Made by a program: the position numbers and the translations under genes. DNA of 64,000 nucleotides from Thermoplasmata archaeon (lineage in GTDB: Archaea > Thermoplasmatota > Thermoplasmata > UBA10834): assembly GCA_020696365.1 (NCBI GenBank), contig JAEHCM010000001.1:166987-230986 (forward strand), written 5' to 3'. Positions 7,920 to 62,726 of the stretch are shown piece by piece. The notes under the pieces were generated by a model. The model searched no databases. It worked only from the letters and a program-made list of their open reading frames with translations, and was not told where the DNA came from. Position 1 is the first letter of the stretch, and each line of letters begins with the position of its first letter.

Positions 7920-7960
7920 AGAGGGCCGTGTAATCCGTCCCCTTCGAATCATGATGAAGT

Positions 7961-8056
7961 GGGCCCGATCGGATTTGAACCGATGACCAATTGGTCACTC
8001 AGGGACCAACAAGTCCCTTATGAGCCAATCGCTCCGCCGGACTAAGCTACGGGCCC
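7961..8056 (-). tRNA. tRNA-Met/Ile2 (anticodon CAT) with a 23-nt intron between positions 37 and 38
   Basis: Minus-strand cloverleaf with 7-bp acceptor GGGCCCG/CGGGCCC, D-stem GCTT/GAGC, anticodon stem ATTGG/CCAAT and loop CTCATA-[intron]-A, and T-arm ATCGG-TTCAAAT-CCGAT. No encoded CCA. Confidence 0.8.
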
Positions 8057-34881: not shown

Positions 34882-35274
34882 CTAGCTCTTCTTCTCGGCC
34901 TCTTCAATCGCCGCTAGAAGTTCTTCGATCCTAAACGGTTTGAGGAGAAATCCCTTGGCTCCAGCTGCCATGGCCTCCTTCTCGATGTGCAGGTCGGCAC
35001 TGCCGAAGAAAACCGTGGCCGTAGGGTCAATGCGAAGAATCTCCTGCGTGGCGCTCACGCCGTCCCTGACGGGCATCCTCTGGTCCATGATGATCACCAC
35101 GGGCTTCTCCTTCATGTCCCTGTATTTGCGAACTGCCTCTTCGCCGTCGGATGCAACTCCGATGACCTCGTGACCGTTTGCCTCGAGTATATCCCGATAC
35201 AGTTCGACGATGAACTTCTCATCGTCAACAAGGAAGACCGTGACGATTCTACAACCTCCGAATGAGCCCCTTGA
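34882..35274 (-). CDS. single-domain response regulator receiver (CheY-like); no canonical start codon
   Basis: The reading frame is open from an in-frame stop at 35275-35277 and encodes a complete receiver: phospho-acceptor region VFLVDDE, IIMDQRMPVRDG, conserved T/S and LLKPF. The only ATG (35115) lies mid-domain, and no ATG/GTG/TTG precedes the DD motif. Confidence 0.5.
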   Translation of the reverse strand, partial: SRGSFGGCRIVTVFLVDDEKFIVELYRDILEANGHEVIGVASDGEEAVRKYRDMKEKPVVIIMDQRMPVRDGVSATQEILRIDPTATVFFGSADLHIEKEAMAAGAKGFLLKPFRIEELLAAIEEAEKKS

Positions 35275-45433: not shown

Positions 45434-46093
45434 ATGGGCTGCGACGGAGGGTTGACGACGGGGATTCCTCTGCTCGGCGATAAGTTACCAGAGCTTGAGG
45501 TTCAAACGACACATGGCAAGATGAAGCTCCCAGAAGCCTTCGCGGGCAAGTGGTTCGTGCTTTTCAGCCATCCAGGTGACTTCACACCTGTGTGCACCAC
45601 GGAGTTCGTGGCCTTCGCGAAGATGCACGAGGAGTTCAGGAAGGAGAATTGCGAGCTCATTGGGCTTTCAGTAGACCAGGTGTTCTCCCACATCAAGTGG
45701 ATTGAGTGGATAAAGGAGAAGCTCGAAGTGGAGGTTACCTTCCCAGTCATAGCCGATGGCTCTGCAAACGTCGCGAAGACGCTGGGAATGATACATCCTG
45801 GCAAGGGTACAAACACCGTTAGGGCGGTGTTCTTTGTGGACCCTGAGGGCAAGATCAGGCTCATGATGTACTACCCGCAGGAGATTGGCAGGAACATGAA
45901 CGAAATCCTCAGGGCCGTCAAGGCGCTGAAGCGATCCGACGAGAACAAGGTCGCTATGCCTGCGAACTGGCCGAAGAACGACTTCCTGGGCGACAAGGTG
46001 ATAATTCCTCCCGCCACGGACGAGAAGACCGCGAAGGAACGACTGTCGAAGTACGACTGCTACGACTGGTGGTTCTGCACGAAGGAGCTGTGA
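45434..46093 (+). CDS. peroxiredoxin (1-Cys/Prx6-like AhpC/TSA family)
   Basis: Peroxidatic Cys motif [12 protein letters not shown]. About 219 aa from the internal ATG at 45434; the ORF opens at 45383. Confidence 0.85.
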
Positions 46094-46165
46094 CTCGCCT
46101 GTCTCCCGAGCCTCTTGGGGCATATCGTTCCGAGTGGGGACCCTCGTAGCGAGAAAGGTTGGTTA

Positions 46166-46270
46166 TGGCGCTCCCGCCGGGATTTGAACCCGGGTATCGA
46201 ACTTTCTCCGGGCGAGTCTGAACTCGCTCGCGAGAGGCTCGAATGATTGGCCGGACTACACTACGGGAGC
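46166..46270 (-). tRNA. tRNA-Glu (anticodon CTC) with a 27-nt intron after position 37; CCA encoded
   Basis: Minus-strand acceptor GCTCCCG/CGGGAGC, archaeal Glu-type D-arm GTGTAGTCCGGCCAATCAT, anticodon stem CGAGC/GTTCG with loop CTCTCG-[intron]-A, and T-arm CCGGG-TTCAAAT-CCCGG. Confidence 0.75.
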
Positions 46271-46369
46271 CTGGTTCAAGCATCCAAATCGGGAGGCTTT
46301 ACATAAACGTTTGGGGTCGAGTTCCTCTTCGTAGAGCGCACTCGCGTTGGAGCCGCTGAAACGCCGCAT

Positions 46370-47188
46370 TCACAGGTCCTCGTCGCCTTCCCTCCAATCC
46401 AGGCCTGGAGTTCTGAGCCCAATCTTCACCACTGCTGGAACCTTTCGTTTGTGTGACGACGATCTGACCATTTTGACGACCCTGTCTATCTTATCCTTTG
46501 GGACGCCTGTACGCTCTATCGCAACATTGCTGTCGAGCCCGAGTTCTATCGTGAGGAGGACTGAGTCGAGGTCTTCGTAGCTCATGCCTATCTCCTTCTC
46601 GTCCGTCTGTTCCGGCCATAAGCCTGCAGAAGGCGCCCTGCCGATGATCTTCTCTGGAATGCCGAGGACTTTCGCCAGCTGGCGTACCTCCGTCTTGTAC
46701 AGGTCTCCTATGGGCTCCAGGTCCGCCCCGCCGTCTCCATGCTTCGTGAAGTATCCAATCAGCAGCTCGCTCTTGTTGCTCGTTCCGAGAACGAGCCTCT
46801 CGTCCTTGCCGGCGAAATGATAGAGGAGAATCATCCTGCAGCGCGCCTTGATGTTCGCCAATCCCCTCCGGCCGATCTTCGCGCCAACTGCGCGTGAGAA
46901 TGACTCGACAGCATCAGAGATGTCTATGATCCTGTGCTGGACTCCCTCAAGCTCACACAACATCGTTGCATCCTCAAGGTCTCCTCTGGGGGAATCCTTC
47001 TCTGGCATGATTAGGCCGAGCACCTTCCCCTTGCCAACAGCTCCGACTGCCAATCTGAGGACGACGGCGGAATCTATCCCTCCGCTTACGCCTAGGACAT
47101 ATCCCTTCGCCCCGGTCTTCCTCAGCTTCTCAGCAATGAAATGCTCGATGATGCTCTCAGTACCGTTCTTGAGGATGGGTGCCGTCAT
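46370..47188 (-). CDS. nadE: NH3-dependent NAD+ synthetase
   Basis: PP-loop SGGIDSAV and NadE C-terminal region. Confidence 0.85.
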   Translation of the reverse strand: MTAPILKNGTESIIEHFIAEKLRKTGAKGYVLGVSGGIDSAVVLRLAVGAVGKGKVLGLIMPEKDSPRGDLEDATMLCELEGVQHRIIDISDAVESFSRAVGAKIGRRGLANIKARCRMILLYHFAGKDERLVLGTSNKSELLIGYFTKHGDGGADLEPIGDLYKTEVRQLAKVLGIPEKIIGRAPSAGLWPEQTDEKEIGMSYEDLDSVLLTIELGLDSNVAIERTGVPKDKIDRVVKMVRSSSHKRKVPAVVKIGLRTPGLDWREGDEDL

Positions 47189-48130: not shown

Positions 48131-48228
48131 AGGGGGGGGTGGCTCACGAGGCGTCTTCATCTCGTTCCAGCATTTCGTGCGTGGATTCGGATATTCTTAA
48201 ATATGAACATCATTTTGGAGGTATCCAA

Positions 48229-48334
48229 GCTGAGGTAGCCCAGCCCGGTAAGGCGCGAGCCTGGAGTCTTGATGATTCAAGCCAGTCAGCTCGTGGCGCT
48301 CTGCGCCTCGGGAGTTCAAATCTCCCCCTCAGCG
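48229..48334 (+). tRNA. tRNA-Ser (anticodon GGA) with a 21-nt intron after position 37
   Basis: Acceptor GCTGAGG/CCTCAGC with discriminator G, 3-bp D-stem, anticodon stem CGAGC/GCTCG with loop CTGGAG-[intron]-A, long variable arm GGCGC-TCT-GCGCC, and T-arm GGGAG-TTCAAAT-CTCCC. Confidence 0.75.
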
Positions 48335-48400
48335 CCTTGTCATATCTTGCTGTTCTCGTGTGGACTGGAAGATTCATACGCGGAACGCAGATTTGCGATG

Positions 48401-48408
48401 TTATAAAA
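48401..48408 (+). promoter_or_regulatory. putative TATA box (TTATAAAA) for the receiver/kinase gene
   Basis: AT-rich octamer about 50 nt upstream of the ATG at 48460, immediately downstream of tRNA-Ser. Confidence 0.3.
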
Positions 48409-48459
48409 TACCCCCCCAGGCTATGGCTATTTCGGTCGGTTCGAAAGGATTTGAAATGG

Positions 48460-48756
48460 ATGAGCGACCCTGAGATCAATGTTCTGCTTGTGGACGACGA
48501 GCCCGAGTTCGCGGAGCTCGTGCATTTCTTTCTAGGCAAGCAACACGATATCACCGTTCATTCGACGAACACTGTCACGAAAGCGCTAGAAATGATTGAT
48601 ACGACGGAGTACGACGCCATTGTGTCCGACTACATGATGCCCGAGATTAACGGCATAGACTTCCTGAAAATACTGAGGGCAAAAGGCAGTTCGATCCCCT
48701 TCATCCTCCTGACGGGTCGGGGGAGGGAGGATGTCGCCGTCCAGGCCCTTAACTAG
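48460..48756 (+). CDS. response-regulator receiver domain truncated by an in-frame TAG
   Basis: NVLLVDDEPEF ... DAIVSDYMMPEINGIDF ... ILLTGRG ... AVQALN then TAG. The stop falls where the receiver alpha4-beta5 GADxY element normally follows. Confidence 0.6.
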   Translation: MSDPEINVLLVDDEPEFAELVHFFLGKQHDITVHSTNTVTKALEMIDTTEYDAIVSDYMMPEINGIDFLKILRAKGSSIPFILLTGRGREDVAVQALN

Positions 48757-48771
48757 GGGGCGGATTTCTAC

Positions 48772-49899
48772 GTGGAGAAGCACGGAGACCCGAAGACGAT
48801 ATTCGCTGAGCTGGCCAACGCCACGAAGCAGTGCGTTGAGAAGAGGGTGGCGCTCGAATCACTCATGGAAACCCAGAATCGATTCGAGTCTTTCATGGAT
48901 CATAGTCCTACCATATCCTTCATAAAGGACCTTCAGGGTCAATATGTGTTCGTGAACAGGGAATACGCGATTATGCTCAATATCCGCAAAGAGGATATCG
49001 TCGGCAGGACAGATTTAGATCTTTGGCCCAAAGCAGCGGCCGAGTCGTTCCGCGAAGCCGACAAGAGAATAACATCATCGGGAATCGGCGAAAAGTTCTC
49101 TGAGGTCATTGAGCAGTCGGACGGCGTGCACGAGTATCTGACTTTCAAGTTCCCCCTCGTCAACTCAAAGGGGAAGGGCACTCTCCTCGGGGGTGTGTCC
49201 TTTGATGTTACGGACATGAAGAGGTACGAGTCAGCGCTTGAACTGGCGAACACCAAGTTAGGAATCCTCGGGGATCTGACCCGCCATGACGCCATCAACC
49301 AGGTCTCTGTGCTTGAGGGGTGGCTGTCACTACTGAAGGAAGATGAATGCGCCGCGGAATTGAGGAACCATCTGGAGAATATGACCGTTGCGACCAAAAC
49401 CCTCAGGGAACAGCTCGAGTTCGCTGGAGAGTATGAAGCTGTGGGGGCGGATAATCAGGCATGGACCGATATCCAGGAGGCTTGCGTGGACGTTTGGGGC
49501 AAGATGGCGGTAGATGACATCATGTTCGAATGCCAATGCTCTGGGTTTGAGGTGCTAGTCGATCCGATGTTCCCCAAGGTGATTCGAAACCTCGTGGATA
49601 ACACTGCGAGGCACGGAGAGGGTGCGGAGATGATCCGCATCTTCTGCCAGGAGACACCTGACGGCCTACGCCTGGTCTATGAGGATGACGGTGCGGGAAT
49701 CGCCTCCGAGGCGAAGGTCAAGATCTTCGACAAAGGCTTCGGAACCAACTCTGGCTTTGGCCTCTACCTGATTCGGGAGTTGCTGAGGATAAGCGATGCG
49801 AGACTCCGCGAGGTTGGCGAGCACGGCAAAGGAGTCCGCTTCGAGATTGTTTTCCCTGAGGGCAGGTATCGCCGCAAGATGGCTAGCGAGAAGGGGTAA
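48772..49899 (+). CDS. PAS-domain sensor histidine kinase, in frame with the upstream receiver through the TAG
   Basis: The frame continues G-ADFYVEKHGDP (the receiver C-terminus), then a PAS domain, a HisKA-like H-box LTRHDAINQ, and HATPase_c (NLVDNTARHG, DDGAGI, GFGLYL). The listed start is GTG at 48772. Confidence 0.7.
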   Translation: MEKHGDPKTIFAELANATKQCVEKRVALESLMETQNRFESFMDHSPTISFIKDLQGQYVFVNREYAIMLNIRKEDIVGRTDLDLWPKAAAESFREADKRITSSGIGEKFSEVIEQSDGVHEYLTFKFPLVNSKGKGTLLGGVSFDVTDMKRYESALELANTKLGILGDLTRHDAINQVSVLEGWLSLLKEDECAAELRNHLENMTVATKTLREQLEFAGEYEAVGADNQAWTDIQEACVDVWGKMAVDDIMFECQCSGFEVLVDPMFPKVIRNLVDNTARHGEGAEMIRIFCQETPDGLRLVYEDDGAGIASEAKVKIFDKGFGTNSGFGLYLIRELLRISDARLREVGEHGKGVRFEIVFPEGRYRRKMASEKG

Positions 49900-49933
49900 T
49901 CGTTTATAGCCGTGAGCATCTAGAAGCCCCCGA

Positions 49934-50599
49934 ATGAATGGTCGCGACGGCAGGGTCAGTGGCCCGAGACGCCTCTCTTCGATGTCCCGGCAGCGGGTGA
50001 TCGAGGCACAGCTGTCTTGGATATCCTGCACGGTCTTGTTCTTCTCTACAGTCTACGTCTTGCTGAAGTTCGACGTGCTTTGGATCGTATTCGGAATCGT
50101 TGCGCTGTCCCTCTATGTGCTCCCGATTGTCACTTTTCGTAACCCCTTCAAGGCACTCCCGTGGGAGATGACGATCCTCCTTTCATCTCCAATCTTACTT
50201 CACGTATCTGAGGGTTCGCGGTTGATGAGCGAGCATGTCGCATGGTGGGACGACGTCACATCGCTCGCTTTTGCCTTCTCATTGTCAACGATTGGCTTCC
50301 TGCTGACCATCGAGTTGCATATGTACACGGCCGTTCGCATGAACAGGACTTTCTCCTCGTTCTTCGTTATGATGTTCACTCTCTCGATGTCAGGTTTCTG
50401 GCTCCTGGGCGAGTACATCGGGGACGAGGTGTTCGGAACGTCGAACCTGCAGACGAATGACGCAGTCATGGTCCAACTGCTTTGGGCCCTGATCGGGGGG
50501 CTGCTGATGGGGCTTCTGTATGCGGCGTATACGCGGGCGATGCCTGACCAGCGCAGGCGCACCCTCGGTCTCCTGCTCATGTGGGAGGTGCAGAGATGA
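49934..50599 (+). CDS. conserved polytopic membrane protein (family A paralogue 1)
   Basis: Multiple TM helices; paralogous to the next gene (WDDVTSLAFAFSLSTIGF ... GEYIGDEVFG). Confidence 0.45.
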   Translation: MNGRDGRVSGPRRLSSMSRQRVIEAQLSWISCTVLFFSTVYVLLKFDVLWIVFGIVALSLYVLPIVTFRNPFKALPWEMTILLSSPILLHVSEGSRLMSEHVAWWDDVTSLAFAFSLSTIGFLLTIELHMYTAVRMNRTFSSFFVMMFTLSMSGFWLLGEYIGDEVFGTSNLQTNDAVMVQLLWALIGGLLMGLLYAAYTRAMPDQRRRTLGLLLMWEVQR

Positions 50600-51240
50600 A
50601 GGAAGGGTTGAAGCTGGCTTCGCGCGCCATGCAAGCAGGAATGGTCGGGCTCGCTATATCGGGCCTACTCATGCGCGAGTACACGTACATCCCCGCAGCA
50701 TTGATCGCGGTATTCATCAGCACCCTCCCGAGCGTCATAAGACGCGATCTCAACCTGGTTCTGCCGGTCGAGCTCAACTTCTGGATCGTCCTCGCGTTGT
50801 TCGTACACATCGTCGGCAGCTTCTCCGGGTTCTATGATAACCTTCCGGGCTGGGACCATCTGACACATGCGATGTCCGCCTCGTTAGTGGCGGCGTTGGG
50901 CTTCGTCGTTGTTACTGCTGTGGACAAATACGCAGACAGCATCTATCTCCCTCCTGCATTTATCGCACTCTTCATCATCATGTTCACGATGGCCATCGGC
51001 GTGATCTGGGAGCTAACGGAGTACTTGGTGGATGAGCTCACTGGCAACCATCTCCAGTATTCGCTGACCGACACGATGAGGGACCTATTGTTCGACACAA
51101 TAGGTGGTTTACTGGTGGCGTCCGTGGGATCGTTCTACCTAACGCACACTTCCATCGACCACTTCGTCGATACACTCCAAGTCGACAAGGCGAAGGAGAG
51201 GGTCAAGGAGGTTCTAGAGAGACGTGCCAGGAGAAAGTGA
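50596..51240 (+). CDS. conserved polytopic membrane protein (family A paralogue 2)
   Basis: ATGA overlap with the upstream paralogue; WDHLTHAMSASLVAALGF ... ELTEYLVDELTG aligns with paralogue 1. Confidence 0.45.
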   Translation: MKEGLKLASRAMQAGMVGLAISGLLMREYTYIPAALIAVFISTLPSVIRRDLNLVLPVELNFWIVLALFVHIVGSFSGFYDNLPGWDHLTHAMSASLVAALGFVVVTAVDKYADSIYLPPAFIALFIIMFTMAIGVIWELTEYLVDELTGNHLQYSLTDTMRDLLFDTIGGLLVASVGSFYLTHTSIDHFVDTLQVDKAKERVKEVLERRARRK

Positions 51241-51245
51241 TTCGG

Positions 51246-51851
51246 TCAGCGCCGTGAGATGTGGTCCACGACTTCAGCGAGGTCATCCTGCGTGTTGACA
51301 TTGATGAAGCTCTCGAGATGGGGGTCGAACCGCCTGATGTCTTCCTCGTCCACTGTTGCCAGATTGAGCAAATGGTATGCGTCTTTTGGCCTTCTCCGCC
51401 CAGAGGCGACGGTCTGTTCGAAAGCATCCAAGCAGGTCTTCCGGCGATAGCAGGCGTGGAGTGGTTCCAGATAGCCACGAACGAAGGGCACCGCCCCGTC
51501 CTTGCCTTCGCCGTTGTTCACGACAGCCCTGCACATCTCTGGCCTGAGGAGAGGGGTGTCACACGGGCTGACGACAACATAATCGCCTCCTGCCGCCCTC
51601 ATCGCGGTTGTCAACCCATGGAGTGGCCCGATCCCTTCTCTCTCGTCTTCGACTATTATCGTGTCATTTGAGAGGAATCTTGCATATTCCTCAGCTCGTC
51701 CTCCCGCTACGGCCACAACGACCTCGTCTGCCAGCATCCGCATCGTCGCTACTACTCTGCTGACCATTGGCTCATCGTTGAGCATGACAAGCCCTTTCTC
51801 CTGGCCGAAACGTGTGCTTGTTCCGCCGGAGAGCACAATCCCCGTCAGCAT
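51246..51851 (-). CDS. mobA: molybdenum cofactor guanylyltransferase
   Basis: GIVLSGGTSTRFG nucleotide-binding motif and PCDTP. The start is taken at the internal Met; the ORF extends to 51989. Confidence 0.75.
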   Translation of the reverse strand: MLTGIVLSGGTSTRFGQEKGLVMLNDEPMVSRVVATMRMLADEVVVAVAGGRAEEYARFLSNDTIIVEDEREGIGPLHGLTTAMRAAGGDYVVVSPCDTPLLRPEMCRAVVNNGEGKDGAVPFVRGYLEPLHACYRRKTCLDAFEQTVASGRRRPKDAYHLLNLATVDEEDIRRFDPHLESFINVNTQDDLAEVVDHISRR

Positions 51852-51972
51852 GTCCACGGGATATCTGGTCGTTCCACATGAACTTTGTCTGGAGAACAGG
51901 TTGGTTAGTGCCCCGGTTTGGCCAAAAAGGTTATAATGGCCGACCATTTTCGAACGCTTGCGGGAGAGCGAG

Positions 51973-53019
51973 ATGCCGAAGATAACCATGGCTCAGGGAG
52001 CTGGCGGGGAGAGGATGCAGGAGTTCATCCGTGAGTTCGTGCTGAAAGAGCTTGAGCACGATTTCGGAGATATTCCGCTGGGAGCCCTCGACGACGCCGC
52101 AGTTGTCGATGGCATCGTGTTCACCACTGACTCATACACCGTCAAACCGTTGTTCTTCCCCGGAGGCGACATCGGCACGCTGGCGGTGGCTGGTACTGTC
52201 AATGACGTCTCCGTCATGGGTGCGACGCCCATAGCGCTGTCGTGCGGAATGATAATCGAGGAGGGGTTCTCCGAGGACGACCTTCACCGTGTCATGAGCA
52301 GCCTGAACAGAACCTCAAGATCGGCAGGTGTGAGGATAGTCACGGGCGATACCAAGGTGGTTGAGAAAGGCGCGGTCGATGAATTGTTCATAAATACGAG
52401 CGGGATCGGGAGACGTTCTATCCACCTCGACGCGAATCTGGAGCGTGTCCGTGCTGCGCGGGAATTTCTATGGGATTGGCCAAACGACTCGGGAGTCGCT
52501 GATGGCGACGTTCTCATCGTCTCGGGATCGATAGGCAACCACGGGGTCGCACTACTGTCATTCCGTGAGGGATATGGGTTCGAAACCGAGGTCCAGACCG
52601 ATGCGGCTCCCTTGAACCACCTGACCGAGTCAGCGGTGAAGGTCGGAGGCGTAGTCGCGATGAAGGATCCCACGCGGGGTGGCCTGGCAAATCTCCTGAA
52701 CGAATGGGCCGAGAAGTCCAAGGTAGGTCTCGTCGTGCGAGAAGAAGATATCCCTATCGACGACCCCGTCCTGGCTGCGTGCGAGATGCTGGGCATCGAC
52801 CCTCTCGAGATTGGAAACGAGGGCAAGGTCGTCCTGGCGGTGGTGCCCGATGCGGCTGAGGAAGTCCTGAAGGTGATCAGGAAGACTCCGGAGGGATCGA
52901 ACGCGCGAATCTTTGGCAGAGCCTCGAAAGACGTCGAGGGCGTACTGCTAGAGACGCAGACCGGGGGGAAGCGGTTGGTCGAGCCTCCCGTGGGAGACCC
53001 CGTCCCGAGGATATGCTAG
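51973..53019 (+). CDS. hypE: [NiFe] hydrogenase maturation protein HypE
   Basis: AIR-synthase-related fold, N-terminal ITMAQGAGG, C-terminal PRIC tail typical of HypE. Confidence 0.8.
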   Translation: MPKITMAQGAGGERMQEFIREFVLKELEHDFGDIPLGALDDAAVVDGIVFTTDSYTVKPLFFPGGDIGTLAVAGTVNDVSVMGATPIALSCGMIIEEGFSEDDLHRVMSSLNRTSRSAGVRIVTGDTKVVEKGAVDELFINTSGIGRRSIHLDANLERVRAAREFLWDWPNDSGVADGDVLIVSGSIGNHGVALLSFREGYGFETEVQTDAAPLNHLTESAVKVGGVVAMKDPTRGGLANLLNEWAEKSKVGLVVREEDIPIDDPVLAACEMLGIDPLEIGNEGKVVLAVVPDAAEEVLKVIRKTPEGSNARIFGRASKDVEGVLLETQTGGKRLVEPPVGDPVPRIC

Positions 53020-53033
53020 CGGTCTATGCCGAT

Positions 53034-53522
53034 TTAATCATCTGAGACGAACTCTGATACGATCCTATCCACAATGGATGGGATGGCGGCTGCGACCGGA
53101 GGGGTCATGCTCTCGCTGACGTTCACGATGTCGTCGGCCTCGATGGCGACGAAGAAGACCTCCTTCGGCATCTTCTCCGGCACGATCTTTCTCCCCATAG
53201 CAAGCGCCGTCGCAATGTTGATGCCGTGAGGCGACGACCCGTGCACGGTCCTCTCGAACGCACTCTCTTCGAGCACATGGAATTCCCCTGGTCTCCCCTC
53301 GTCCGTCACGATGGCGTCCACGATGACCACTCTGTCGTAGCCCAGAACCATGTCCAGAAGCTCCAAACCGCTCGCGGGCAGCTCCTCCACATCCACGCCT
53401 TCGAGCCCGAGGTCCCTGAGCTTTCTCGCAACGTGAATGCCCACACCATCATCGGAGAGTATCGGGTTACCGACGCCCACTATCAACGTCCGGGGACGAT
53501 GCCGTTCATCAGAGATGCTCAT
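53034..53522 (-). CDS. hydrogenase maturation endopeptidase (HycI/HyaD/FrhD family)
   Basis: LIVGVGNPILSDDGVGIHV N-terminus and conserved Asp/His metal ligands. Confidence 0.8.
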   Translation of the reverse strand: MSISDERHRPRTLIVGVGNPILSDDGVGIHVARKLRDLGLEGVDVEELPASGLELLDMVLGYDRVVIVDAIVTDEGRPGEFHVLEESAFERTVHGSSPHGINIATALAMGRKIVPEKMPKEVFFVAIEADDIVNVSESMTPPVAAAIPSIVDRIVSEFVSDD

Positions 53523-53594
53523 GGAGATACCTCACCGCCTAGCATGGTGGAAAAACATGTCGTCGAGGGGAGCCGCCCCTCGTGTGACAACACA

Positions 53595-55109
53595 TCAGAA
53601 GTTTCTCACGGTCTTCAGCTTCGACCCGTCGGCGCGTCTCACGTTTATCTCAAGGGCCGGAGAGCCGTTCAGAGCGTGTGTTCCGCAGGAGTTGCATGGG
53701 TCGTAGCATCGGAACGCCATCTCGACCTTGTTCAGCAGTCCTTGGGAGACTTCGCCGTTCTTGATCAAGGCCTTCGCCGCCTGCACGACGCTCGTGTTGA
53801 TCGCAGCGTTGTTGTTCGTCGTCGCTACGATCATGTTGATCTTCGTGCATAGCCCGTCCTTGTCCGAGGCGTAGTGGTGTATCAGCGTACCTCTGGGAGC
53901 TTCGCATATGCCCACGCCTTCCGTCGGCTCCTTGAACTCGCCTCGGGTGTCATCGCTCGTTATGACATCGTCGGTGACCAGCTCGAGCATCCTCTCCGTA
54001 GCGTGCTGCAGCTCGATCACCCTCGCCCAGTGGAACGCGAGCGTGTGATGGACTGGTCCTGTCACTCCCAAGTCCTTCACGGTCTTGGCCAATGCCTCGT
54101 ACTCCGCCTGTGCGAGAGGGGTTGTGTAGCCCTCGCAGACGTTTATCCTGCCGAGGGGTCCGACCCTGTATATCCCGCTTGACGGGCCTGTGGTGAAACC
54201 GTTCCAGCCGACGCTCTTCAGATATGGCATCTTCATGTATGACCACGGTTCGACGTGCTCGGCGATGACGTCGAGATACTCGCTCGGCTTGAACTTGACG
54301 ACCTCCTTGCCGGCCTGGTCGACGACCCGTATGTCTCCGTCGTAGAAGTTGCTCTTGTTGTCCTTGTCGACCATGCCCATGTAGTATGTCTCGAGGTAAT
54401 ACGCGTCCTGGTTCAGGATGAGTCCGAGGTAGTCCTGGTTGGCCAGCACGACATCGTGGAACAGCTTCGTCGTGAACTTGCCGAACTCGACGCACGACCT
54501 GGCCATCTCCTCCATCTGAACGCGCTCCTCCTCGCTTATCTGCTTCGAGACGCCGCCGGGTAGGCCAAAGCACGGATGCGTGGCCCTCCCTCCGACGATC
54601 TCCTGCACCTTCTGACCATACGAGCGGTGCTTGATGACCTCTGCGCCGATCTCGACGCCGACGGCATCCACCACTCCCAGGATATTCCTCTTGTTGGATG
54701 GCGCTGACGGTCCCAGCACGAAGTCGGGCGCTGCGAGCGCGTAGAAGTGTGCTATGTGGCTGTGGGTGTACTGTCCCATGTAGAACAGCTCTCTCAGTTT
54801 TGTCGCCGTTTCCGTCGGGGTGGCGTCGAACACCGCGTCAAGCGTCTTGGTCGACGCTATGTGATGCGCGGCCGGGCAGACGCCACACAGCCGGTTGGTG
54901 ATTATGGGCAGTTCCTGCACATGTCTGCCGATGCAGAACCTCTCGAAGCCTCTGAGTTCAGGAACTTGCCAGTAGGCGTTGGCCACGTTCCCCTCGTCGT
55001 TCAGGAAGATCTCGATCTTGCCGTGTCCTTCGAGCCTCGTGACCGGGTCGATCGTGAGTTTCTTCTCGGTCGTCTTGGTTGTCGTATCGTTGATTATCGG
55101 TCCGGACAT
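53595..55109 (-). CDS. mvhA: [NiFe] hydrogenase large subunit (Mvh/Vht-type, F420-non-reducing)
   Basis: N-terminal RLEGHGKIEI, proximal CxxC (RLCGVCPAAH) and C-terminal DPCNSCGTH Ni ligands, plus a C-terminal extension. Confidence 0.85.
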   Translation of the reverse strand: MSGPIINDTTTKTTEKKLTIDPVTRLEGHGKIEIFLNDEGNVANAYWQVPELRGFERFCIGRHVQELPIITNRLCGVCPAAHHIASTKTLDAVFDATPTETATKLRELFYMGQYTHSHIAHFYALAAPDFVLGPSAPSNKRNILGVVDAVGVEIGAEVIKHRSYGQKVQEIVGGRATHPCFGLPGGVSKQISEEERVQMEEMARSCVEFGKFTTKLFHDVVLANQDYLGLILNQDAYYLETYYMGMVDKDNKSNFYDGDIRVVDQAGKEVVKFKPSEYLDVIAEHVEPWSYMKMPYLKSVGWNGFTTGPSSGIYRVGPLGRINVCEGYTTPLAQAEYEALAKTVKDLGVTGPVHHTLAFHWARVIELQHATERMLELVTDDVITSDDTRGEFKEPTEGVGICEAPRGTLIHHYASDKDGLCTKINMIVATTNNNAAINTSVVQAAKALIKNGEVSQGLLNKVEMAFRCYDPCNSCGTHALNGSPALEINVRRADGSKLKTVRNF

Positions 55110-55115
55110 CTTGAA

Positions 55116-56129
55116 TCACCCCTTCCTCTTGCGTTCCTTCACAGTCCTCTTGAGGAGGGACTTGGGGAGCGTGAAGGCGTAGAAAGTCCCGATCGGGTCT
55201 TTCACCTGCATCATAAGTTCTATTATCTGCTCCTCACTTAACTTTGACTCCGAATCCGTGATGTTGAGGATCGAAGCTAGCGCGCTCAGCATGCTACCTC
55301 CGTGGTCCATAACGGCCTTCGTCGGGCCCATGCAACCCCTACAGGGCATGTTGGCGACCGGGCACATCGCACCACAGCCCGCGCGCGTCGCGGGCCCTAT
55401 GCATATTATACCCTGGTCCAACAGGCACTTCTTAGGGTCGGCCTTGATCTCATAAGCCTGATAGATCCTGTCGATCCTCCGGTCCGTCTCGACCCGTTCC
55501 CGGTCGCATTCGTCGCAGAGCGTCTTGTCGGATGCGATGACAGTGCCCTTCGGCGGCAGAGGCGCCCCCTCCTTCACGTGCTTCAGGACAGCGCCGACTG
55601 CCACCATGATGAGGTCGACCGTAGGCGGACAACCGGGCATGAAGTAGTCGACATCTACGACCTCGTCAAGGGTCTTCACGGTGTCGTAGAATTCCGGCAG
55701 GGTCAACTCTCCCTCTGGCACCTTCACACTCGTCTGCGGCGTCACGAATTCGGGATTGTCGGTCGACTCGGTGTCCTTGTAGACTGTCTGGAACACCTCC
55801 TCCTTGTTCGTCACATTCGCGAGGCCCGGCGTCCCGCCGAAGCATGCGCACGATCCGAAGCTTATCATTATGACGGACTTCTCCCTCAGCACCTTCGCGA
55901 CATGTTCGTTCTCGCTGTTCCTTATCGCTCCGTTGTAGAACGCTACCGTGATTGACTTGTCCGGCATCTGCTCCAATTCGTGTAGCTTGCCGTCGAAGCC
56001 TATCGGCCAGAACACCACCTCGGCTATGGCGTGCAAATCCAGTATACTTGCGTCTATGTCCAGGAGCGCGACGTCGCATCCCCCGCAGCCCGCGCCCCAG
56101 TACTGCGCAATCTTGATCTTATCTGCCAT
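55116..56129 (-). CDS. mvhG: [NiFe] hydrogenase small subunit (F420-non-reducing type)
   Basis: YWGAGCGGCDVA N-terminal cluster motif, FGSCACFGG, and distal cluster cysteines. Confidence 0.85.
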   Translation of the reverse strand: MADKIKIAQYWGAGCGGCDVALLDIDASILDLHAIAEVVFWPIGFDGKLHELEQMPDKSITVAFYNGAIRNSENEHVAKVLREKSVIMISFGSCACFGGTPGLANVTNKEEVFQTVYKDTESTDNPEFVTPQTSVKVPEGELTLPEFYDTVKTLDEVVDVDYFMPGCPPTVDLIMVAVGAVLKHVKEGAPLPPKGTVIASDKTLCDECDRERVETDRRIDRIYQAYEIKADPKKCLLDQGIICIGPATRAGCGAMCPVANMPCRGCMGPTKAVMDHGGSMLSALASILNITDSESKLSEEQIIELMMQVKDPIGTFYAFTLPKSLLKRTVKERKRKG

Positions 56130-56131
56130 GT

Positions 56132-56515
56132 TCAGCTCACCTCCTTGGTTGAAGCGTCACTCCTCGGTACCGCCTTGTACTGCGGCGACTGTCCAGTCAT
56201 GCCGACCTGCTCGATCAGCCTCCACCGCTTGAGGGCTATTATGTGCCTGACTATCTCGGGCTTCGGCAGGCCTGTCGCGTCGTGCAGTTCGTGCACGGTC
56301 TGCGGACTGGCTTCCATCTGCAGTAGGAGCATGTTCCTCTCGAGCTCCACTGCCGCGGCCTTCTGCAGTATGAAACTGTATCGCCCGTCGGTGATCGTCT
56401 CCCCGAACACGTTTTCCTCAGTGGTCAGCGAGCCCTTCTTTCCGAGCAGCCAACGTATCCTCTCTCCCTCGAGAGTCCTCAGCGCTGCGTGTATCTTGAC
56501 CTCTCTCGGGTTCAT
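56132..56515 (-). CDS. small wHTH-like protein co-transcribed with mvhD (unknown function)
   Basis: 127 aa; homologous to the C-terminal domain of the MvhD-fusion protein at 60014..60310 (LLLQMEASPQTVHELHDATGLPKPEIVRHIIALKRWRLIEQ versus LILELARIRPISVKQLGMVMEVPTDRILRHIVLLRQNSMIAME). Confidence 0.5.
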   Translation of the reverse strand: MNPREVKIHAALRTLEGERIRWLLGKKGSLTTEENVFGETITDGRYSFILQKAAAVELERNMLLLQMEASPQTVHELHDATGLPKPEIVRHIIALKRWRLIEQVGMTGQSPQYKAVPRSDASTKEVS

Positions 56516-56517
56516 CC

Positions 56518-56979
56518 TCAGTCACCACCTCTCATGGGGGACGGTCCGATCTCCTCAATCGTCTTCGTGAACTCGACCATCGTCTTCTGGAACTTCTCGC
56601 CCTCTCCGGCCGAGATCCACTCAAGCCTCAGCCTGTCAGGGTCATATCCGAACTGCTGGAGGAGTATCCTCAGAAGCGCGATCCTCCTGCGGGTCCTGTA
56701 GTTGCCTCCTATGTAGTGGCAGTCCGCCGGATGGCAGCCTGCGACCAACACGCCGTCGGCCCCTTTCTGGATCGCCCTCAGGACGAACTCCGGGTCCACT
56801 CTCGCGGAGCACATTACCCTTATCACCCTGAAGTGCGGGGGCATCTGCATCCTGCTGACACCCGCCAGGTCCGCGCCTGCGTAAGAGCACCAGTTGCAGC
56901 AGAACACGATTATCTTCGGCTCGAAGTCCTCGCCCTCGGCCTTCTCCTCGCTCTGGGCGCTCGGCGTTGTGCTGCTCAT
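56518..56979 (-). CDS. mvhD: MvhD (methyl-viologen-reducing hydrogenase delta subunit, [2Fe-2S])
   Basis: CCNWCSY...RVMCSARV...AGCHPADCHY pattern of MvhD. Confidence 0.85.
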   Translation of the reverse strand: MSSTTPSAQSEEKAEGEDFEPKIIVFCCNWCSYAGADLAGVSRMQMPPHFRVIRVMCSARVDPEFVLRAIQKGADGVLVAGCHPADCHYIGGNYRTRRRIALLRILLQQFGYDPDRLRLEWISAGEGEKFQKTMVEFTKTIEEIGPSPMRGGD

Positions 56980-59900
56980 TGCTTCACCTCCTGGTTCTCC
57001 GCGGCATCCTCAAGCGCCGCGTCTATCATCGCCACAATCTGCTCGTCACTGAAGCCCATCTGTGTTAGCGCTCCAGATGGACATGCGCCCACGCACGCTC
57101 CGCAGCCCTTGCACAGGCCCACGTTGATATCGAGGGTCTTCTTCTTCTCGTCCTTTTTGTCGGGGACGATCTCGAGCGCCTTGTACTCGCACGTCGGGAC
57201 ACATATGCCGCAGCCGTCGCAGAGCGTCTCGTCGAGGAACGCGACGATGCCCTCCGCCTCGAGGGTCGTCTTCGACAGTACGGTCATCGCGCGCGATACG
57301 GTGGCCAGACCCTGTCCGATGCACTCGTCCAGGAACTTCGGCCCGTGCGCCAGACCGGCGACGTACACTCCCTCCGTGGCGAAGTCGACCGGCCTGAGTT
57401 TCATGTGCGCCTCAAGGAAGAATCCCTCCTTCGTAATGGGCACCTTCAGCATCGGCGCGAGCTCCTCGGAGCCGTCACTCGGCCGCGTGCCTGCGGCGAG
57501 CACCAGGTTGTCAGGCGTGAGCACGACCTCCTTGCCAGTGTCCTCGTCCGTCACGCGCACCTCGATCTTGCCGCCCTTGTCCTCGACCTGCGGCTTGGTG
57601 CCGTCTTCGAACCTTATGAAGGTCACGCCCTTCTCGGCAGCCTCTTTGTAGTACTTCTCGCGGAAGCCGTAGGTCCTGATGTCCCTGTAGAGAACGAAGA
57701 CCTTCGCATCGGGGTCCTTCTCCTTCACCTTGATCGCCGCGGTCATCGTGCCCGTGCAACACACGCGCGAGCAGTTCGGATGGCCTTCCTCACGCGAGCC
57801 GACGCACTGTATGAACGCGTACGAGTCTCCCTTGACCTCGCCCTTCTTGAGCTTGTCCTTGAACTCGAGCAGGGTCATCACGCCGGGGTTTTTGCCGTAG
57901 AGGTACTCGCCATCCGGCTTGTACTCCTGCGCCCCAACGGCGACTATGACCGTGCCGTGCTCCATCTCCTCGCCGGACTCGAGCGTCGTCTTGAAGTTGC
58001 CGACATACCCGTCGATGCTCTTGACCTTCTTGCCGGTGTAGACAGTTATGTTCGGGTCGGAGGCGACCTCCTTCGCGAGCGACTGGACGTACTCCACCGG
58101 GTCGTCCCCGGACGGGAGGTAGTGCAGCTTCAGCAGGGTGCCGCCCAGCTCTTTCTCCTTCTCGACCAGATGAACCTTGACGCCCTGCTTCGCCAGCTCG
58201 AGCGCCGCCACCATGCCGGACGCGCCTCCGCCGACCACGAGCGCCTGCTGGTTGACATTGATTGTCAGGTTCTCCAGCGATTCCAGCAACCTGGACTTCG
58301 CAACGGCCATGCGCACGAGATCCTTCGCCTTCTTCGTCGCAGCTGCGGGTTCGTGCATGTGTATCCACGAGCATTGGTCCCGTATGTTCGCCATCTCGAA
58401 CAGGTACGCGTTGAGCCCGGCCTCCTTGATGGTGTTCTGGAACAGCGGCTCGTGCGTCCTGGGCGTGCAGCTCGCGACGACGACCCTGTTCAGGTTGTGC
58501 TCCTTCACCATCTGTTTGATCTTCTCCTGCGTGTCCTGCGAGCAAGTATACAGGTTCTCCTCCGCATACACGACGTTCGGAAGGGACCTCGCGTACTCAG
58601 CCACCGACGGCACCTTGACGACGCCGCCTATGTTGATCCCGCAGTGACACACGAACACGCCTATCCGCGGCTCCTGCTCCGAGACGTCTATCTCGGCAGG
58701 ATACTCCTTCTTCGTGACGAGCGTGTCCCTGGCAGATGCGATCTCGGACGCGGCCTTCGCCGCCGCCCCGCTCGCCTCCGCGACTGTCATCGGGATGTCC
58801 TTCGGCGACGAGAACGCGCCACTGACGAACACTCCCGGACGGGATGTGCTGACAGGGGTGAACGCCCCGGTCTCGCAGAAACCGTCGTCGTTCAGGCTGA
58901 AATTCATGACCTTGCTGAGCGCCTCGGCGTCCTCCGGAGGCCTCAGGCCCACTGCGAGCACGACCAGCCCGAACTCCTCCTCCTTGGGCTCCCCCTTCTC
59001 CACGTACTTGAGTATCAGGTTCTTCGTCTTCGGGTCCTCGAACACGGATGCAACCCTGGAACGGACGAACTCGATGCCGTACTCGTCCTTGGCCCTGTTG
59101 TAGTACTCCTCGAATTCCTTGCCGAAGGCCCTCATGTCCATGAAGAATATCTTGGGCTTGATGTTCCCGCCATGCTCCTTGGCTATGATGGCCTCCTTGA
59201 TGGAGTACATGCAGCAGACGCCGGAACAGTACTCGTTGCCGACCTTCTCGTCCCTCGAGCCGACGCATTGTATGAACGCTATCTTCTCGGGTATGTCCCC
59301 GTCCGAAGGTCTCATGACCGTGCCGAAGTGCGGTCCTGTGGCGCTGAGTATCCTCTCGAACTCGATGCTCGAGACGACGTTCTGGTACACGCCGTACCCG
59401 TACTCCGCCTTGAGCCTCGCGTCGAACTCGTCGAAGCCAGGCGATACGATGATCGAGCCGACCTTGATCTCGAAGTCCTTCTCCTTCTGATCGTATTCGA
59501 CCGCGTCGGCCTTGCACTCCTCCGCGCATATGCCGCAGCCGATGCACTTCTCCGGGTCGATCGAGTAGATGAGGGGCACTGCCTGCGGGTACTTGACGAA
59601 TATCGCCTTCCGCACCTTCGTGTTCTCGTTGTACTCGTCAGTCGTCTCTATCGGACACTTCTGGGCGCAGCTACCACAGCCCGTACATTTCGAGGCGTCC
59701 ACTCTGAGCGCCCTCTGCTTGCCGGTCACCGTGAAGTTGCCCTCCTGTCCGTCGACTTTGACGATGTCCGCGTTCGTTATCAGATCGATGTTGTGGTGCC
59801 TCCCGGTCGCGACGAGCTTCGGCGCCATGATGCACATGGCGCAGTCGTTCGTCGGGAAGGTCTTGTCGAGCTGGGCCATCGCGCCGCCTATGCTCGGTTG

Positions 59901-60017
59901 CTTCTCGACCAGGTATACTTTGAACCCTGAGTCGGCCAGGTCGAGCGCCGACTGCAGGCCTGAGATGCCGCCTCCGACGACCATGACCGCTCCAATCTTG
60001 TCAGTAGCTGCCATCAC
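56976..60017 (-). CDS. hdrA: tandem HdrA-like flavoprotein (QmoA-like FAD/ferredoxin module fused to a complete HdrA)
   Basis: 1013 aa. The N-terminal half is an HdrA FAD domain (VVGGGISG, DKTFPTNDCAMC, two inserted CxxCxxCxxxCP) lacking the N-terminal Cys cluster. Then a complete HdrA: VFVCHCGINIGG, second FAD site VVGGGASGMVAA, CSRVCCTG, and C-terminal 2x[4Fe-4S]. Confidence 0.8.
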   Translation of the reverse strand: MMAATDKIGAVMVVGGGISGLQSALDLADSGFKVYLVEKQPSIGGAMAQLDKTFPTNDCAMCIMAPKLVATGRHHNIDLITNADIVKVDGQEGNFTVTGKQRALRVDASKCTGCGSCAQKCPIETTDEYNENTKVRKAIFVKYPQAVPLIYSIDPEKCIGCGICAEECKADAVEYDQKEKDFEIKVGSIIVSPGFDEFDARLKAEYGYGVYQNVVSSIEFERILSATGPHFGTVMRPSDGDIPEKIAFIQCVGSRDEKVGNEYCSGVCCMYSIKEAIIAKEHGGNIKPKIFFMDMRAFGKEFEEYYNRAKDEYGIEFVRSRVASVFEDPKTKNLILKYVEKGEPKEEEFGLVVLAVGLRPPEDAEALSKVMNFSLNDDGFCETGAFTPVSTSRPGVFVSGAFSSPKDIPMTVAEASGAAAKAASEIASARDTLVTKKEYPAEIDVSEQEPRIGVFVCHCGINIGGVVKVPSVAEYARSLPNVVYAEENLYTCSQDTQEKIKQMVKEHNLNRVVVASCTPRTHEPLFQNTIKEAGLNAYLFEMANIRDQCSWIHMHEPAAATKKAKDLVRMAVAKSRLLESLENLTINVNQQALVVGGGASGMVAALELAKQGVKVHLVEKEKELGGTLLKLHYLPSGDDPVEYVQSLAKEVASDPNITVYTGKKVKSIDGYVGNFKTTLESGEEMEHGTVIVAVGAQEYKPDGEYLYGKNPGVMTLLEFKDKLKKGEVKGDSYAFIQCVGSREEGHPNCSRVCCTGTMTAAIKVKEKDPDAKVFVLYRDIRTYGFREKYYKEAAEKGVTFIRFEDGTKPQVEDKGGKIEVRVTDEDTGKEVVLTPDNLVLAAGTRPSDGSEELAPMLKVPITKEGFFLEAHMKLRPVDFATEGVYVAGLAHGPKFLDECIGQGLATVSRAMTVLSKTTLEAEGIVAFLDETLCDGCGICVPTCEYKALEIVPDKKDEKKKTLDINVGLCKGCGACVGACPSGALTQMGFSDEQIVAMIDAALEDAAENQEVKQ

Positions 60018-60880
60018 TGCTCACCTCCGATCTCGATGGTCTTGTAGAGCGGTGTGAACCCCTCCGGGTGCTCCATCGCGATCATGCTGTTCTGTCTGAG
60101 TAGGACGATGTGCCTGAGTATCCTGTCCGTGGGTACCTCCATGACCATGCCCAGCTGTTTCACCGATATGGGTCTTATCCGTGCCAACTCGAGTATCAGC
60201 GCCCTCTCGAATTCCTCCTCCGTTGCGACATCTATGATGCCGCTGAGTTTCTCGGGATCGAGCTTGTCACCGTACGCGTTCCCCTTGCTGAGGAGGTTGA
60301 ACTCCTTCCCAACCAGGGCCTTCAATCTGAAAGTCTCGGAGGCGTCGTCAGCGGCTGCGACCTTCGCCTTCATCATATCATCCGTGTGTATCTTGCTCGG
60401 TCCTAGTTTCTGGATCTCCTCGGTGAATTCCGTTACGACCTTGGAGAACTTCTCTCCCTCGGACGCCGAGACCCATTCGAGCCTCAGCCGCCCTTCGTCG
60501 ACCCCCGCTTCTCTGAGCAGCCTCTTCATCAGGTTCACGCGCTTCTCCGTGTGGTAATTGCCCGTCATGTAGTGACAGTCGTTCAGGTGACATCCTCCGA
60601 TGAGGATGCCGTCGGCACCAGCCTCGAAGACTTCGAGTACAATGTGTGGGCTCACCCTCGTGGAGCACATCACCCTGACGAGGCGGATGTTCGTCGGATA
60701 CTGGAACCTGCTGACGCCGCATAGGTCGGCGCCTGCGTACGAGCACCAGTTGCAGAGGAAGCCGACGATCTTCGGCTCCCATTCCTTGTCGGCCTCGGCC
60801 TTCTTCTTGCCGTGATGAGCGGTGTGATGCTTCTCCGTCATGTCCTCACACCTCCTCCAAGGCCGCTTTTGCCTCCGCAA
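60014..60880 (-). CDS. MvhD-like [2Fe-2S] protein fused to a C-terminal wHTH-like domain
   Basis: N-terminal FLCNWCSY...RVMCSTRV...GGCHLNDCHY (MvhD) with a C-terminal domain of about 100 aa homologous to the ORF at 56132..56515. The likely start is the internal Met at 60841. Confidence 0.75.
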   Translation of the reverse strand: MRRQKRPWRRCEDMTEKHHTAHHGKKKAEADKEWEPKIVGFLCNWCSYAGADLCGVSRFQYPTNIRLVRVMCSTRVSPHIVLEVFEAGADGILIGGCHLNDCHYMTGNYHTEKRVNLMKRLLREAGVDEGRLRLEWVSASEGEKFSKVVTEFTEEIQKLGPSKIHTDDMMKAKVAAADDASETFRLKALVGKEFNLLSKGNAYGDKLDPEKLSGIIDVATEEEFERALILELARIRPISVKQLGMVMEVPTDRILRHIVLLRQNSMIAMEHPEGFTPLYKTIEIGGEQ

Positions 60881-62720
60881 GCAGCTGCTGATCGGTGTAA
60901 TGTGTCATGGTGATGGCACCCTCCGGGCAAGTGGCACCGCAACAACCACAGCCCTTGCACGCTGCGACGATCACCTCGGTGATACCCTCTTCGTTCTTCC
61001 TCAGGGCGCTGTATGGGCACGTTTCGACGCATGTCCCGCAGCCAGTGCACTTCGTCTCGTCGACTATTGAAGTGAGCGCCTCGGCCTGGACGAACCCGTT
61101 CGCAAGAGGTATCGATGCCCTCGAGGCAGCAGCAGCAGCCTGAGAGACGGCCTCCGAGATGTCGGCCGGTCCTCTGCAAGTCCCGCAGACGTACACTCCA
61201 TCGGTCGCGAAGTCCACCGGTCTCAGCTTGACATGCGCCTCTTGGAAGAAGCCGTCTTGTCCGAGCGGGACCTTCAGCAGCTGCGATAGTGTGGCAGCGT
61301 CTGGCTGGGCCACGAGCGGAGTCGAGAGTATGACCAAGTCAACGGGCATCGTCCTCTCCATCTTCAGCGTCTCGTGGAAGTATCCGACCTCGAGCTTTCC
61401 GTCCTTAACGGATACCTTCGGAAGGTTGTCCGGTAGGTATCTGACGAACTTGACTCTCTTCTCCCTAGCCTTGTTGAACTCGAGCTCGTGTTCGACGCCG
61501 TACGACATGACGTCCCTGTTGAACACCGTGACCTCGACACCACTGGACGGAGCGGCCTCCTCGCCGGCCTCATCCTCGTCACCTCGGCCTCTGCCCCGCC
61601 TTCTTCGCCTTCTGTCAGACCCCTCTTCCTCCGCCTTCTTCTCGGCGGCGGGTTCTTCCACGACCTCTCCTGTCTCCGCTGCCTTCTCCTCGGTCACGCC
61701 GAGCATGTTGTCGCGATTCTCGGCAATGTTTATCGCGCTCTTGATCGCGACGTTGCAGCAGACCCTGGAGCAGTATGAGACCTTCTGCCCTCTCGCGCCA
61801 ACGCATTGTATGAAAGCGACGCTCTTCAGCTTGGGCAGTTCCTTCTTGTTGCAGAGCTCCTCGAACTCTGTGGATGTGATGACGTTCGGGTGTTCCTTGT
61901 ACCCGAACAACCCCTCGGGTACCAGCGGGACCGCGCCCGTGGCCACGATGATGGTGCCAACCTTGACTTCTTTGGCCTCAGCCCCGTCCCCTCCTATGGA
62001 GATATCATAGTTGCCTATGAACCCCTCCACCGATGCGACGTGCGAGTTGAGGTGCTGTGTGATGTTCTTGTGGGCGTTCACCTTGTCGATGAGTGGCTTG
62101 ATCGTCTCGTTGGCGCTCTTGGTGGTCATCATGAGGCCGTGCAGGTTCTTCACGAACCCTCCGAGCTCCTCGTCCTTCTCGACGAGGTGCACCGGGAATC
62201 CCATGTTCGCCAGCGACAGCGCTGCCGTCATCCCGGACACGCCGCCTCCGACGACGAGCGCGGTGGGCGTAACATCGACCTTCGTCTCCTCCTGGGGCTC
62301 CAGGAATCGGGCTCTCGCAACACCCATCCTGACCAAGTCCTTCGCCTTCTGGGTCGCCTTCTCCTTCTCTTTCATGTGGACCCACGAGCAGTGCTCACGG
62401 ATGTTGACGAACGTGAACATGTACTTGTTCACGCCAGCAGCCTCGCATGTCCGTTGGAAGAGAGGGGCGTGCGTCCTGGGTGTGCAGCTCGACACTATCA
62501 CTCTGTCGAGGTTGTGTTCCTTGATGCTATCCTTGATGTTGTTGAGACCGTCCTCGGCACATGTGTAGAGGTTGTCCGCTGCGTACGCAACGTCCGGGAG
62601 GGTTGACGCATACTCGGTCACGGCCTTCACATCGACAAAGCCGCCTATGTTGGACCCACAGTGGCAGATGAATACTCCGATCCGTGGTTTCTCCTTCTCG
62701 GTGCTTGTGTTCTCGGGCAT
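60846..62720 (-). CDS. hdrA: heterodisulfide reductase subunit A-like flavoprotein
   Basis: VFICHCGSNIGG N-terminal Cys domain, FAD site LVVGGGVSGMTAA, CSRVCC, and C-terminal ferredoxin CTGCGTCVETCP ... CKGCGCCGATCP. Carries a low-complexity insertion around 61535..61715. Confidence 0.85.
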   Translation of the reverse strand: MPENTSTEKEKPRIGVFICHCGSNIGGFVDVKAVTEYASTLPDVAYAADNLYTCAEDGLNNIKDSIKEHNLDRVIVSSCTPRTHAPLFQRTCEAAGVNKYMFTFVNIREHCSWVHMKEKEKATQKAKDLVRMGVARARFLEPQEETKVDVTPTALVVGGGVSGMTAALSLANMGFPVHLVEKDEELGGFVKNLHGLMMTTKSANETIKPLIDKVNAHKNITQHLNSHVASVEGFIGNYDISIGGDGAEAKEVKVGTIIVATGAVPLVPEGLFGYKEHPNVITSTEFEELCNKKELPKLKSVAFIQCVGARGQKVSYCSRVCCNVAIKSAINIAENRDNMLGVTEEKAAETGEVVEEPAAEKKAEEEGSDRRRRRRGRGRGDEDEAGEEAAPSSGVEVTVFNRDVMSYGVEHELEFNKAREKRVKFVRYLPDNLPKVSVKDGKLEVGYFHETLKMERTMPVDLVILSTPLVAQPDAATLSQLLKVPLGQDGFFQEAHVKLRPVDFATDGVYVCGTCRGPADISEAVSQAAAAASRASIPLANGFVQAEALTSIVDETKCTGCGTCVETCPYSALRKNEEGITEVIVAACKGCGCCGATCPEGAITMTHYTDQQLLAEAKAALEEV

Positions 62721-62726
62721 GTCTGT

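Follow-up and report, generated by a model that had tools for sequence, protein, structure and literature searches.

A probable recent nonsense mutation in the receiver domain of a PAS histidine kinase gene from a Thermoplasmata archaeon

Strain-specific nonsense pseudogenes of two-component sensor genes are a known kind of event in the population genomics of bacteria and archaea, and proteins combining an N-terminal receiver, a PAS domain and a histidine kinase (REC-PAS-HK) are common in the Methanomicrobiales and the Thermoplasmata. In-frame TAG codons outside the methylamine methyltransferase genes have also been described in the Thermoplasmata, in 'Candidatus Methanomethylophilus alvus', which has gained them in genes with homologues free of such codons and which combines a complete pyl cassette with only 1.6% TAG stops (Borrel et al. 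2014, PMC4153887). Here we analyze a REC-PAS-HK gene located at positions 48460-49899 (+) of a 64,000-nucleotide stretch of DNA from a Thermoplasmata archaeon (contig JAEHCM010000001.1, positions 166,987 to 230,986; hereafter the window), the reading frame of which is interrupted by a TAG codon in the receiver. We consider it probable that this TAG is a very recent, strain-specific nonsense mutation in a dispensable sensor gene standing at the start of its decay.

Among known systems, the gene is closest to 'PAS domain S-box' proteins of the REC-PAS-HK type (for example P0031, P0043 and P0050; 471-481 aa), which show 33-38% identity to the window gene. Domain order, length and the receiver, H-box and ATP-binding motifs are shared with this family, to which the intact orthologues P0001 and P0243 belong without any peculiarity; the window copy departs from it through its premature TAG at codon 99, and encodes only fragments as written. 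As in known sensor-gene pseudogenes, the locus presents a one-base sense-to-stop change, intact sister alleles, a raised ratio of nonsynonymous to synonymous substitution rates (dN/dS) and independent disruptions, the only extra element being that both disruptions here fall in the receiver. The likeness to the 'Ca. M. alvus' genes is that both organisms belong to the Thermoplasmata and that an in-frame TAG stands in place of a sense codon of the homologues. Unlike those genes, the TAG reported here is not shared by near-identical strains, the same domain is disrupted by a TAA in another strain, and the window presents no detected pyl gene and a much larger share of TAG stops (14.5%). The window copy is an already known kind of event and mainly calls for an annotation correction: the 98/101-aa 'response regulator' and the adjacent 375-aa 'PAS kinase' should become a single entry, marked as a disrupted hybrid-kinase gene and counted neither as two signalling proteins nor as a pyrrolysine (Pyl) candidate.

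Translation of the region yields one frame of 479 codons, encoding the receiver, the PAS domain and the histidine kinase in that order, with the TAG at 48754-48756 (codon 99) as its sole internal stop. The 98 codons ahead of the TAG (48460-48753, +) encode the receiver from β1 to α4 and match Pfam Response_reg (PF00072; E 5e-20) over profile positions 1-89 of 111, so that the receiver as written ends after α4 and falls short of the complete (βα)5 fold. When codon 99 was entered as X, the match strengthened to E 4.8e-24 and spanned the TAG (residues 8-117, profile 1-109 of 111). The frame continues unchanged past the TAG into the receiver remainder (48757-48810, +), where Pfam, the structural model and alignment to solved receivers place the GAD element, the β5 segment 'FYVE', the conserved Lys107 and the start of α5. 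A 380-codon open frame with matching domains beyond the TAG is not a chance occurrence. A preliminary description of this locus, made from its letters alone, had proposed both the continuous frame and the loss of β5 and α5 from the receiver as written, and both proposals are borne out. AlphaFold modelling of P0001, an intact orthologue (mean predicted local distance difference test score of 80), places α4 at residues 93-101 and the Leu that corresponds to codon 99 at residue 102, followed by β5 (106-109) and α5 (114-150); alignments to solved receivers agree in placing β5, the Lys and α5 past the codon-99 residue. The acidic pair D12/D13, the phospho-acceptor D57 ('VSDY') and T86 ('LLTG') precede the TAG and Lys107 ('VEKH') comes after it, meaning that the full set of receiver active-site residues is assembled only if the TAG is read through.

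Beyond the receiver, the frame encodes a PAS domain (48898-49221, +; residues 147-254) with a Pfam PAS_4 match (E 3e-12) and PAS-like strands and helices in the model, followed by dimerisation and phosphotransfer helices (49222-49449, +) recognized from the model and the family alignment, and by a HATPase_c catalytic domain (49576-49860, +; residues 373-467; Pfam PF02518, E 4e-13). It ends at a normal stop, TAA (49897-49899, +), which is TAA in all orthologues. As to the earlier claim of a complete HisKA/HATPase_c kinase, Pfam returned no HisKA match in the window protein, the H-box of which ('TRHD') is divergent. The phosphotransfer His276 (codon 49285-49287) lies within 'LTRHD', which aligns with the 'ITRHD' of the family, and two long helices in the model (254-296 and 302-331) make up a two-helix H-box domain. 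The N box ('DNTARHG'), G1 box ('DDGAG') and G2 box ('GFGLYL') are all intact.

Four relatives present TTG (Leu) at codon 99, which answers the call of the preliminary description for a comparison of this residue across orthologues. These are L056, an ENA contig encoding the intact 479-aa allele P0243, the gene of which differs from the window at 10 of 1440 nt (99.3% identity); L001, a JGI metagenome contig (Ga0589154_00033467) in full synteny with the window, with 97.3% identity over 7.2 kb; L003, an NCBI Thermoplasmata metagenome-assembled genome (MAG) at 96% identity; and L002, a Logan contig at 92.9% identity. Judging by sequence, L001 and L003 probably belong to the same species as the window. 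The intact proteins P0001, P0002, P0088 and P0243 all read 'QALNLGADFY' across the site. Because the four relatives carry TTG, the TAG, unique to the window strain among the five alleles compared, is derived and strain-specific, the outcome of a single T>A change at 48755, and the sequence comparison places its origin after the split from the 99.3%-identical allele. The orthologues are fused, not separate receiver and kinase genes, and of the explanations offered in the preliminary description it is the recent nonsense mutation that agrees with the TTG of the four relatives, with an intact allele only 10 nt away and with the presence of the TAG in an independent assembly. Further searches added no comparable allele: exact-pattern scans with the 38-nt TAG site found no match in genome and metagenome contig sets, a protein-guided metagenome scan returned only relatives at ≤47% identity, and a protein search with the receiver and linker for further truncated alleles yielded no new close relatives.

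The independent assembly, made from raw reads, is a Logan contig (L055, from SRR26538805) that is 100% identical to window positions 48252-52655 (4.4 kb), TAG included. In addition, three gene calls in the databases, P0241 (101 aa), P0242 (98 aa) and P0244 (375 aa), which stem from an NCBI contig of 438,024 bp, very probably the source of the window, and from the Logan assembly of SRR26538805, correspond exactly to the two fragments of the window, the 101-aa call reflecting an alternative TTG start at 48451. A sequencing or consensus error, in which the true codon would be TTG, had been put forward as an explanation, and the TAG is indeed a single-base difference from all relatives, found in a Logan contig that likely derives from the source genome's own run. 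The agreement of two different assemblers on the same base, within 4.4 kb of complete identity, nevertheless makes an assembler artefact unlikely, and coding regions show no indels relative to the relatives. No other interrupted gene was found among the ~55 genes of the window, indicating that the assembly is not generally error-prone, and eight further private amino-acid changes in the window allele point to a genuinely distinct lineage. On this evidence we regard an error at this base as highly improbable. A TAA-interrupted gene had also been suspected at 18318 and was rejected as a wrong-frame open reading frame (ORF) lying over an intact ABC permease gene.

Substitution patterns at the locus bear on whether the gene is still maintained. 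The kinase gene shows a dN/dS of ~0.5 (9 synonymous and 16 nonsynonymous changes against L001; 36 and 65 against L002), compared to 0.06-0.27 for seven or eight neighbour genes, a difference that is significant by Fisher's test in both comparisons (p = 0.0013 for window-L001 and p = 6e-13 for window-L002). Between the window and L056 there are 1 synonymous, 8 nonsynonymous and 1 nonsense changes, all of them private to the window and none to L056. By these counts, purifying selection on the kinase gene is relaxed and its constraint weak. In L001, furthermore, codon 51 of this receiver has independently changed from TAC to the stop TAA (window equivalent 48610-48612), just before the phospho-acceptor Asp, and the kinase G2 box has a Gly>Cys substitution (window equivalent 49759-49761). 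We estimate that ~3.6% of random substitutions create stops, so that near-neutral evolution could account for the single stop that each of the two lineages has acquired.

Taken together, weak constraint on the locus and the different stop of another strain in the same domain make a dispensable gene in decay the simplest reading. The T>A change at 48755 converted TTG (Leu99) into TAG in the gene for a PAS histidine kinase with an N-terminal receiver, and in such a scenario translation would terminate at codon 99, releasing a 98-residue receiver stump that, deprived of β5 with its conserved Lys107 and of α5, would be unable to act as a phospho-switch. The full-length hybrid kinase would be lost, and the downstream PAS-kinase would be silent or would yield a low-level product from GTG 48772 or ATG 48865. 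The independent truncation of the same receiver in two close strains, along with the existence of short and long forms of the gene described below, provides a small natural example of fast sensor-kinase turnover in uncultured sediment archaea.

Several observations weigh against this reading. The substitution counts are small, and dN/dS is inflated between very close strains; the adjacent DUF2238 genes, which lie in the same low-divergence segment, present 5 nonsynonymous and 2 synonymous changes. The Logan contig probably shares its sequencing run with the source genome, and a library-level artefact thus keeps a small probability. The residue at codon 99 is variable in the family (L, N, R, S, H, A or E), and a read-through product would therefore probably fold and work. 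TAG aside, the window copy is undamaged at conserved kinase and receiver motifs, implying that the mutation is very young and that function may not yet be lost. Lastly, both stops (codons 51 and 99) lie in the receiver, and the kinase has none. The first 99 codons hold ~14% of the stop-creating opportunities, which under uniform neutral decay gives this arrangement a nominal probability of ~0.02-0.03, the only hint that the kinase part could still be needed.

This last observation is the starting point for a functional split of the gene, in which loss of the receiver would be tolerated or even favoured, and a receiver-less PAS-kinase translated from an internal start would escape control by its own receiver. 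The 375-codon ORF at 48772-49899 (+), which begins at a GTG (Val105) and is identical to P0244, would be the candidate re-initiation product. The preliminary description had set this GTG in the middle of a receiver helix, but it lies in strand β5, two residues before Lys107. The next in-frame ATG is at 48865 (Met136), and in L001 the corresponding internal start would be the ATG-ATG at codons 59-60. Two independent stops confined to the receiver in close strains, with none in 380 kinase codons, in-frame start codons located 6-8 codons past each stop, the intact H, N, G1 and G2 boxes of the window copy and the prediction of 375-aa and 421-aa products by public gene callers are all in line with such a split. 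Nonetheless, inspection of the sequence revealed no convincing Shine-Dalgarno element or promoter before GTG 48772 or ATG 48865, the former being preceded only by a weak G-run (GGGGG, 48757-48761), and by our estimate chance alone would put a start-like codon no more than 8 codons from a stop in ~4 of 10 cases. The Gly>Cys change in the G2 box of L001 argues for decay and not for a working kinase, dN/dS past the stop is not low (0.66 for window versus L001), and the argument is post hoc and draws on two events only. We therefore view a functional split as unlikely, if less so than an error in the sequence, and favor decay of a dispensable gene.

Programmed read-through or pyrrolysine insertion had likewise been proposed for this TAG. 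The codon would then be decoded by a pyrrolysyl-tRNA, provided that the genome has pyl, or by low-level natural read-through, and the full-length kinase would still be made. The tolerance of position 99 for many residues across the family, Arg, His and Glu among them, the in-frame TAGs gained by 'Ca. M. alvus' and the placement of the organism in the Thermoplasmata are compatible with decoding. Against it, TAG occurs at this site in none of the relatives, not even in the 99.3%-identical allele, and the stop carried in the same domain by L001 (97.3%) is a TAA, which pyrrolysine cannot explain. The excess of private amino-acid changes in the window allele also argues against continued purifying selection on a full-length product. 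We hence deem decoding of the TAG very improbable, on a par with a sequencing error.

The remainder of the window was examined for signs of a decoding apparatus. Pfam scans of ORFs found no pyl synthesis genes, PylS or methylamine methyltransferases in the 64-kb window, nor was a CUA-anticodon tRNA present among its three tRNAs, which are Asn(GTT) and two intron-containing ones, Ser(GGA) and a tRNA with a CAU anticodon. Two candidate suppressor tRNAs were rejected, as 48229-48334 corresponds to the intron-containing Ser(GGA) and 7960-8056 to the intron-containing tRNA with the CAU anticodon. No stable stem-loop resembling a pyrrolysine insertion sequence was detected 3' of the TAG: the 107 nt from the TAG have a predicted folding energy of -31.7 kcal/mol, compared to a shuffle mean of -30.5 (z = -0.37).

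Stop codon usage is consistent with an ordinary role for TAG, as the preliminary description had correctly noted. Among 55 curated genes of the window, TAG ends 8 (14.5%, cdc48 among them), TGA 43 and TAA 4. The TAG stops of the CN-hydrolase and HypE-like genes are kept in relatives, and in a comparison of twelve related genomes the genes for aspartyl-tRNA synthetase (AspRS), PORb, Sec61-beta and a GNAT protein end in TAG in some and in TGA or TAA in others, with the terminal position unchanged; the stop of HycI is TAA in the window and TAG in L002. From these alignments, TAG is read as a normal, interchangeable stop across the clade, essential genes included. Methanomassiliicoccus luminyensis ends 11.3% of its genes in TAG despite carrying pyl (PMC4153887), and the 14.5% observed here are consequently compatible with a pyl system.

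The best AspRS matches are MAGs labelled Thermoplasmata or 'Methanobacteriota' (93-70% identity; isolate UBA10834, 65%), and the isolate names of the closest ones suggest mud, sediment and subsurface, with none named Methanomassiliicoccales. Non-methanogenic Thermoplasmata orders basal to the Methanomassiliicoccales have been reported to lack pylBCDS (bioRxiv 10.1101/2020.03.09.984617). A PylS search with the M. alvus enzyme was uninformative on this clade, its best 120 matches all being of the Methanomethylophilaceae type, and a literature search on Pyl in Thermoprofundales gave nothing usable. That the genome carries pyl and that the new TAG is partly read as pyrrolysine, at a surface position tolerant of substitution, is in our view extremely unlikely. 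If true, it would show a signalling protein in which a sense codon is being taken over by the 22nd amino acid, and this in a Thermoplasmata lineage from sediment that is not among the methanogens known to use Pyl.

The kinase gene occurs in two forms at this locus. The short form (479 aa) is present in the window, L001, L056 and L002, and the long form (at least 869 aa) in L003 and P0246. The long form, a multi-PAS allele or paralogue found in Thermoplasmata MAGs (P0246 and P0088), shares with the window the upstream neighbours (NAD synthase, CN hydrolase and tRNA-Ser), a near-identical receiver and a C-terminal PAS-kinase of 73% identity, and differs by ~390 extra residues, comprising further sensor domains, PAS included, between the receiver and the last PAS domain. 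Immediately past the receiver linker (window ~48865 onward), the match of the window to L003 at the DNA level breaks down, as it would after an internal deletion or recombination, and the window-type gene resembles a version shortened by internal deletion.

The locus is also mosaic in its divergence. Between the window and L056, the segment 48460-51240 has a synonymous divergence of ~0.003 for the kinase gene and 0-0.012 for the pair of DUF2238 genes, and values of ~0.08-0.09 are reached in NAD synthase, CN hydrolase and MobA. Synonymous divergence between the window and L002 is 0.02 in the PAS region versus 0.2 in the catalytic domain. This pattern suggests recent recombination. L056 further harbors, between peroxiredoxin and NAD synthase, an MscS-type channel gene (1722-2672, against window 46093-46370) that the window lacks, and the DNA upstream of that gene is only 90% identical to the window.

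A TATA-like element, TTATAAAATA, was recognized by eye at 48401-48410 (+), ~50 nt upstream of the start, and constitutes the probable archaeal promoter of the kinase gene; it is largely kept in L002 and L003, and two of its bases are altered in L001. Intergenic homopolymers at 48132-48139 and 48411-48417 (G8 and C7) exceed those of relatives in length by one to several bases, and the indel differences seen from strain to strain all lie outside coding regions. The tRNA-Ser(GGA) gene at 48229-48334 (+), located 125 nt upstream of the kinase gene, has a long variable arm and an insert of ~24 nt and was missed by ARAGORN, which also left untyped the CAU-anticodon tRNA at 7960-8056 (-), with an insert of ~25 nt.

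A second receiver gene in the window, encoding a stand-alone CheY-like protein of ~121 aa with a TAG stop, is located at 34882-35247 (-), upstream of AspRS, and recurs at ~2480-2850 in L004-L007. It contains no ATG, GTG or TTG before the β1 strand, and ORF finders return only a 77-aa piece from an internal ATG. A GGAGGT motif, a 6-nt spacer and an ATC codon are invariant in the window and four related species, which suggests that translation may start at this conserved non-canonical ATC.

No methanogenesis genes were seen in the window. A hydrogenase/heterodisulfide-reductase-like block occupies 53034-63983 (-) and encodes the HycI protease, NiFe large and small subunits, two proteins with FlpD/MvhD domains and three HdrA-like proteins, one of which is a 1012-aa flavoprotein with several ferredoxin domains. 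Pfam matches also reveal a clostripain-family peptidase and an S9 peptidase encoded in the window.

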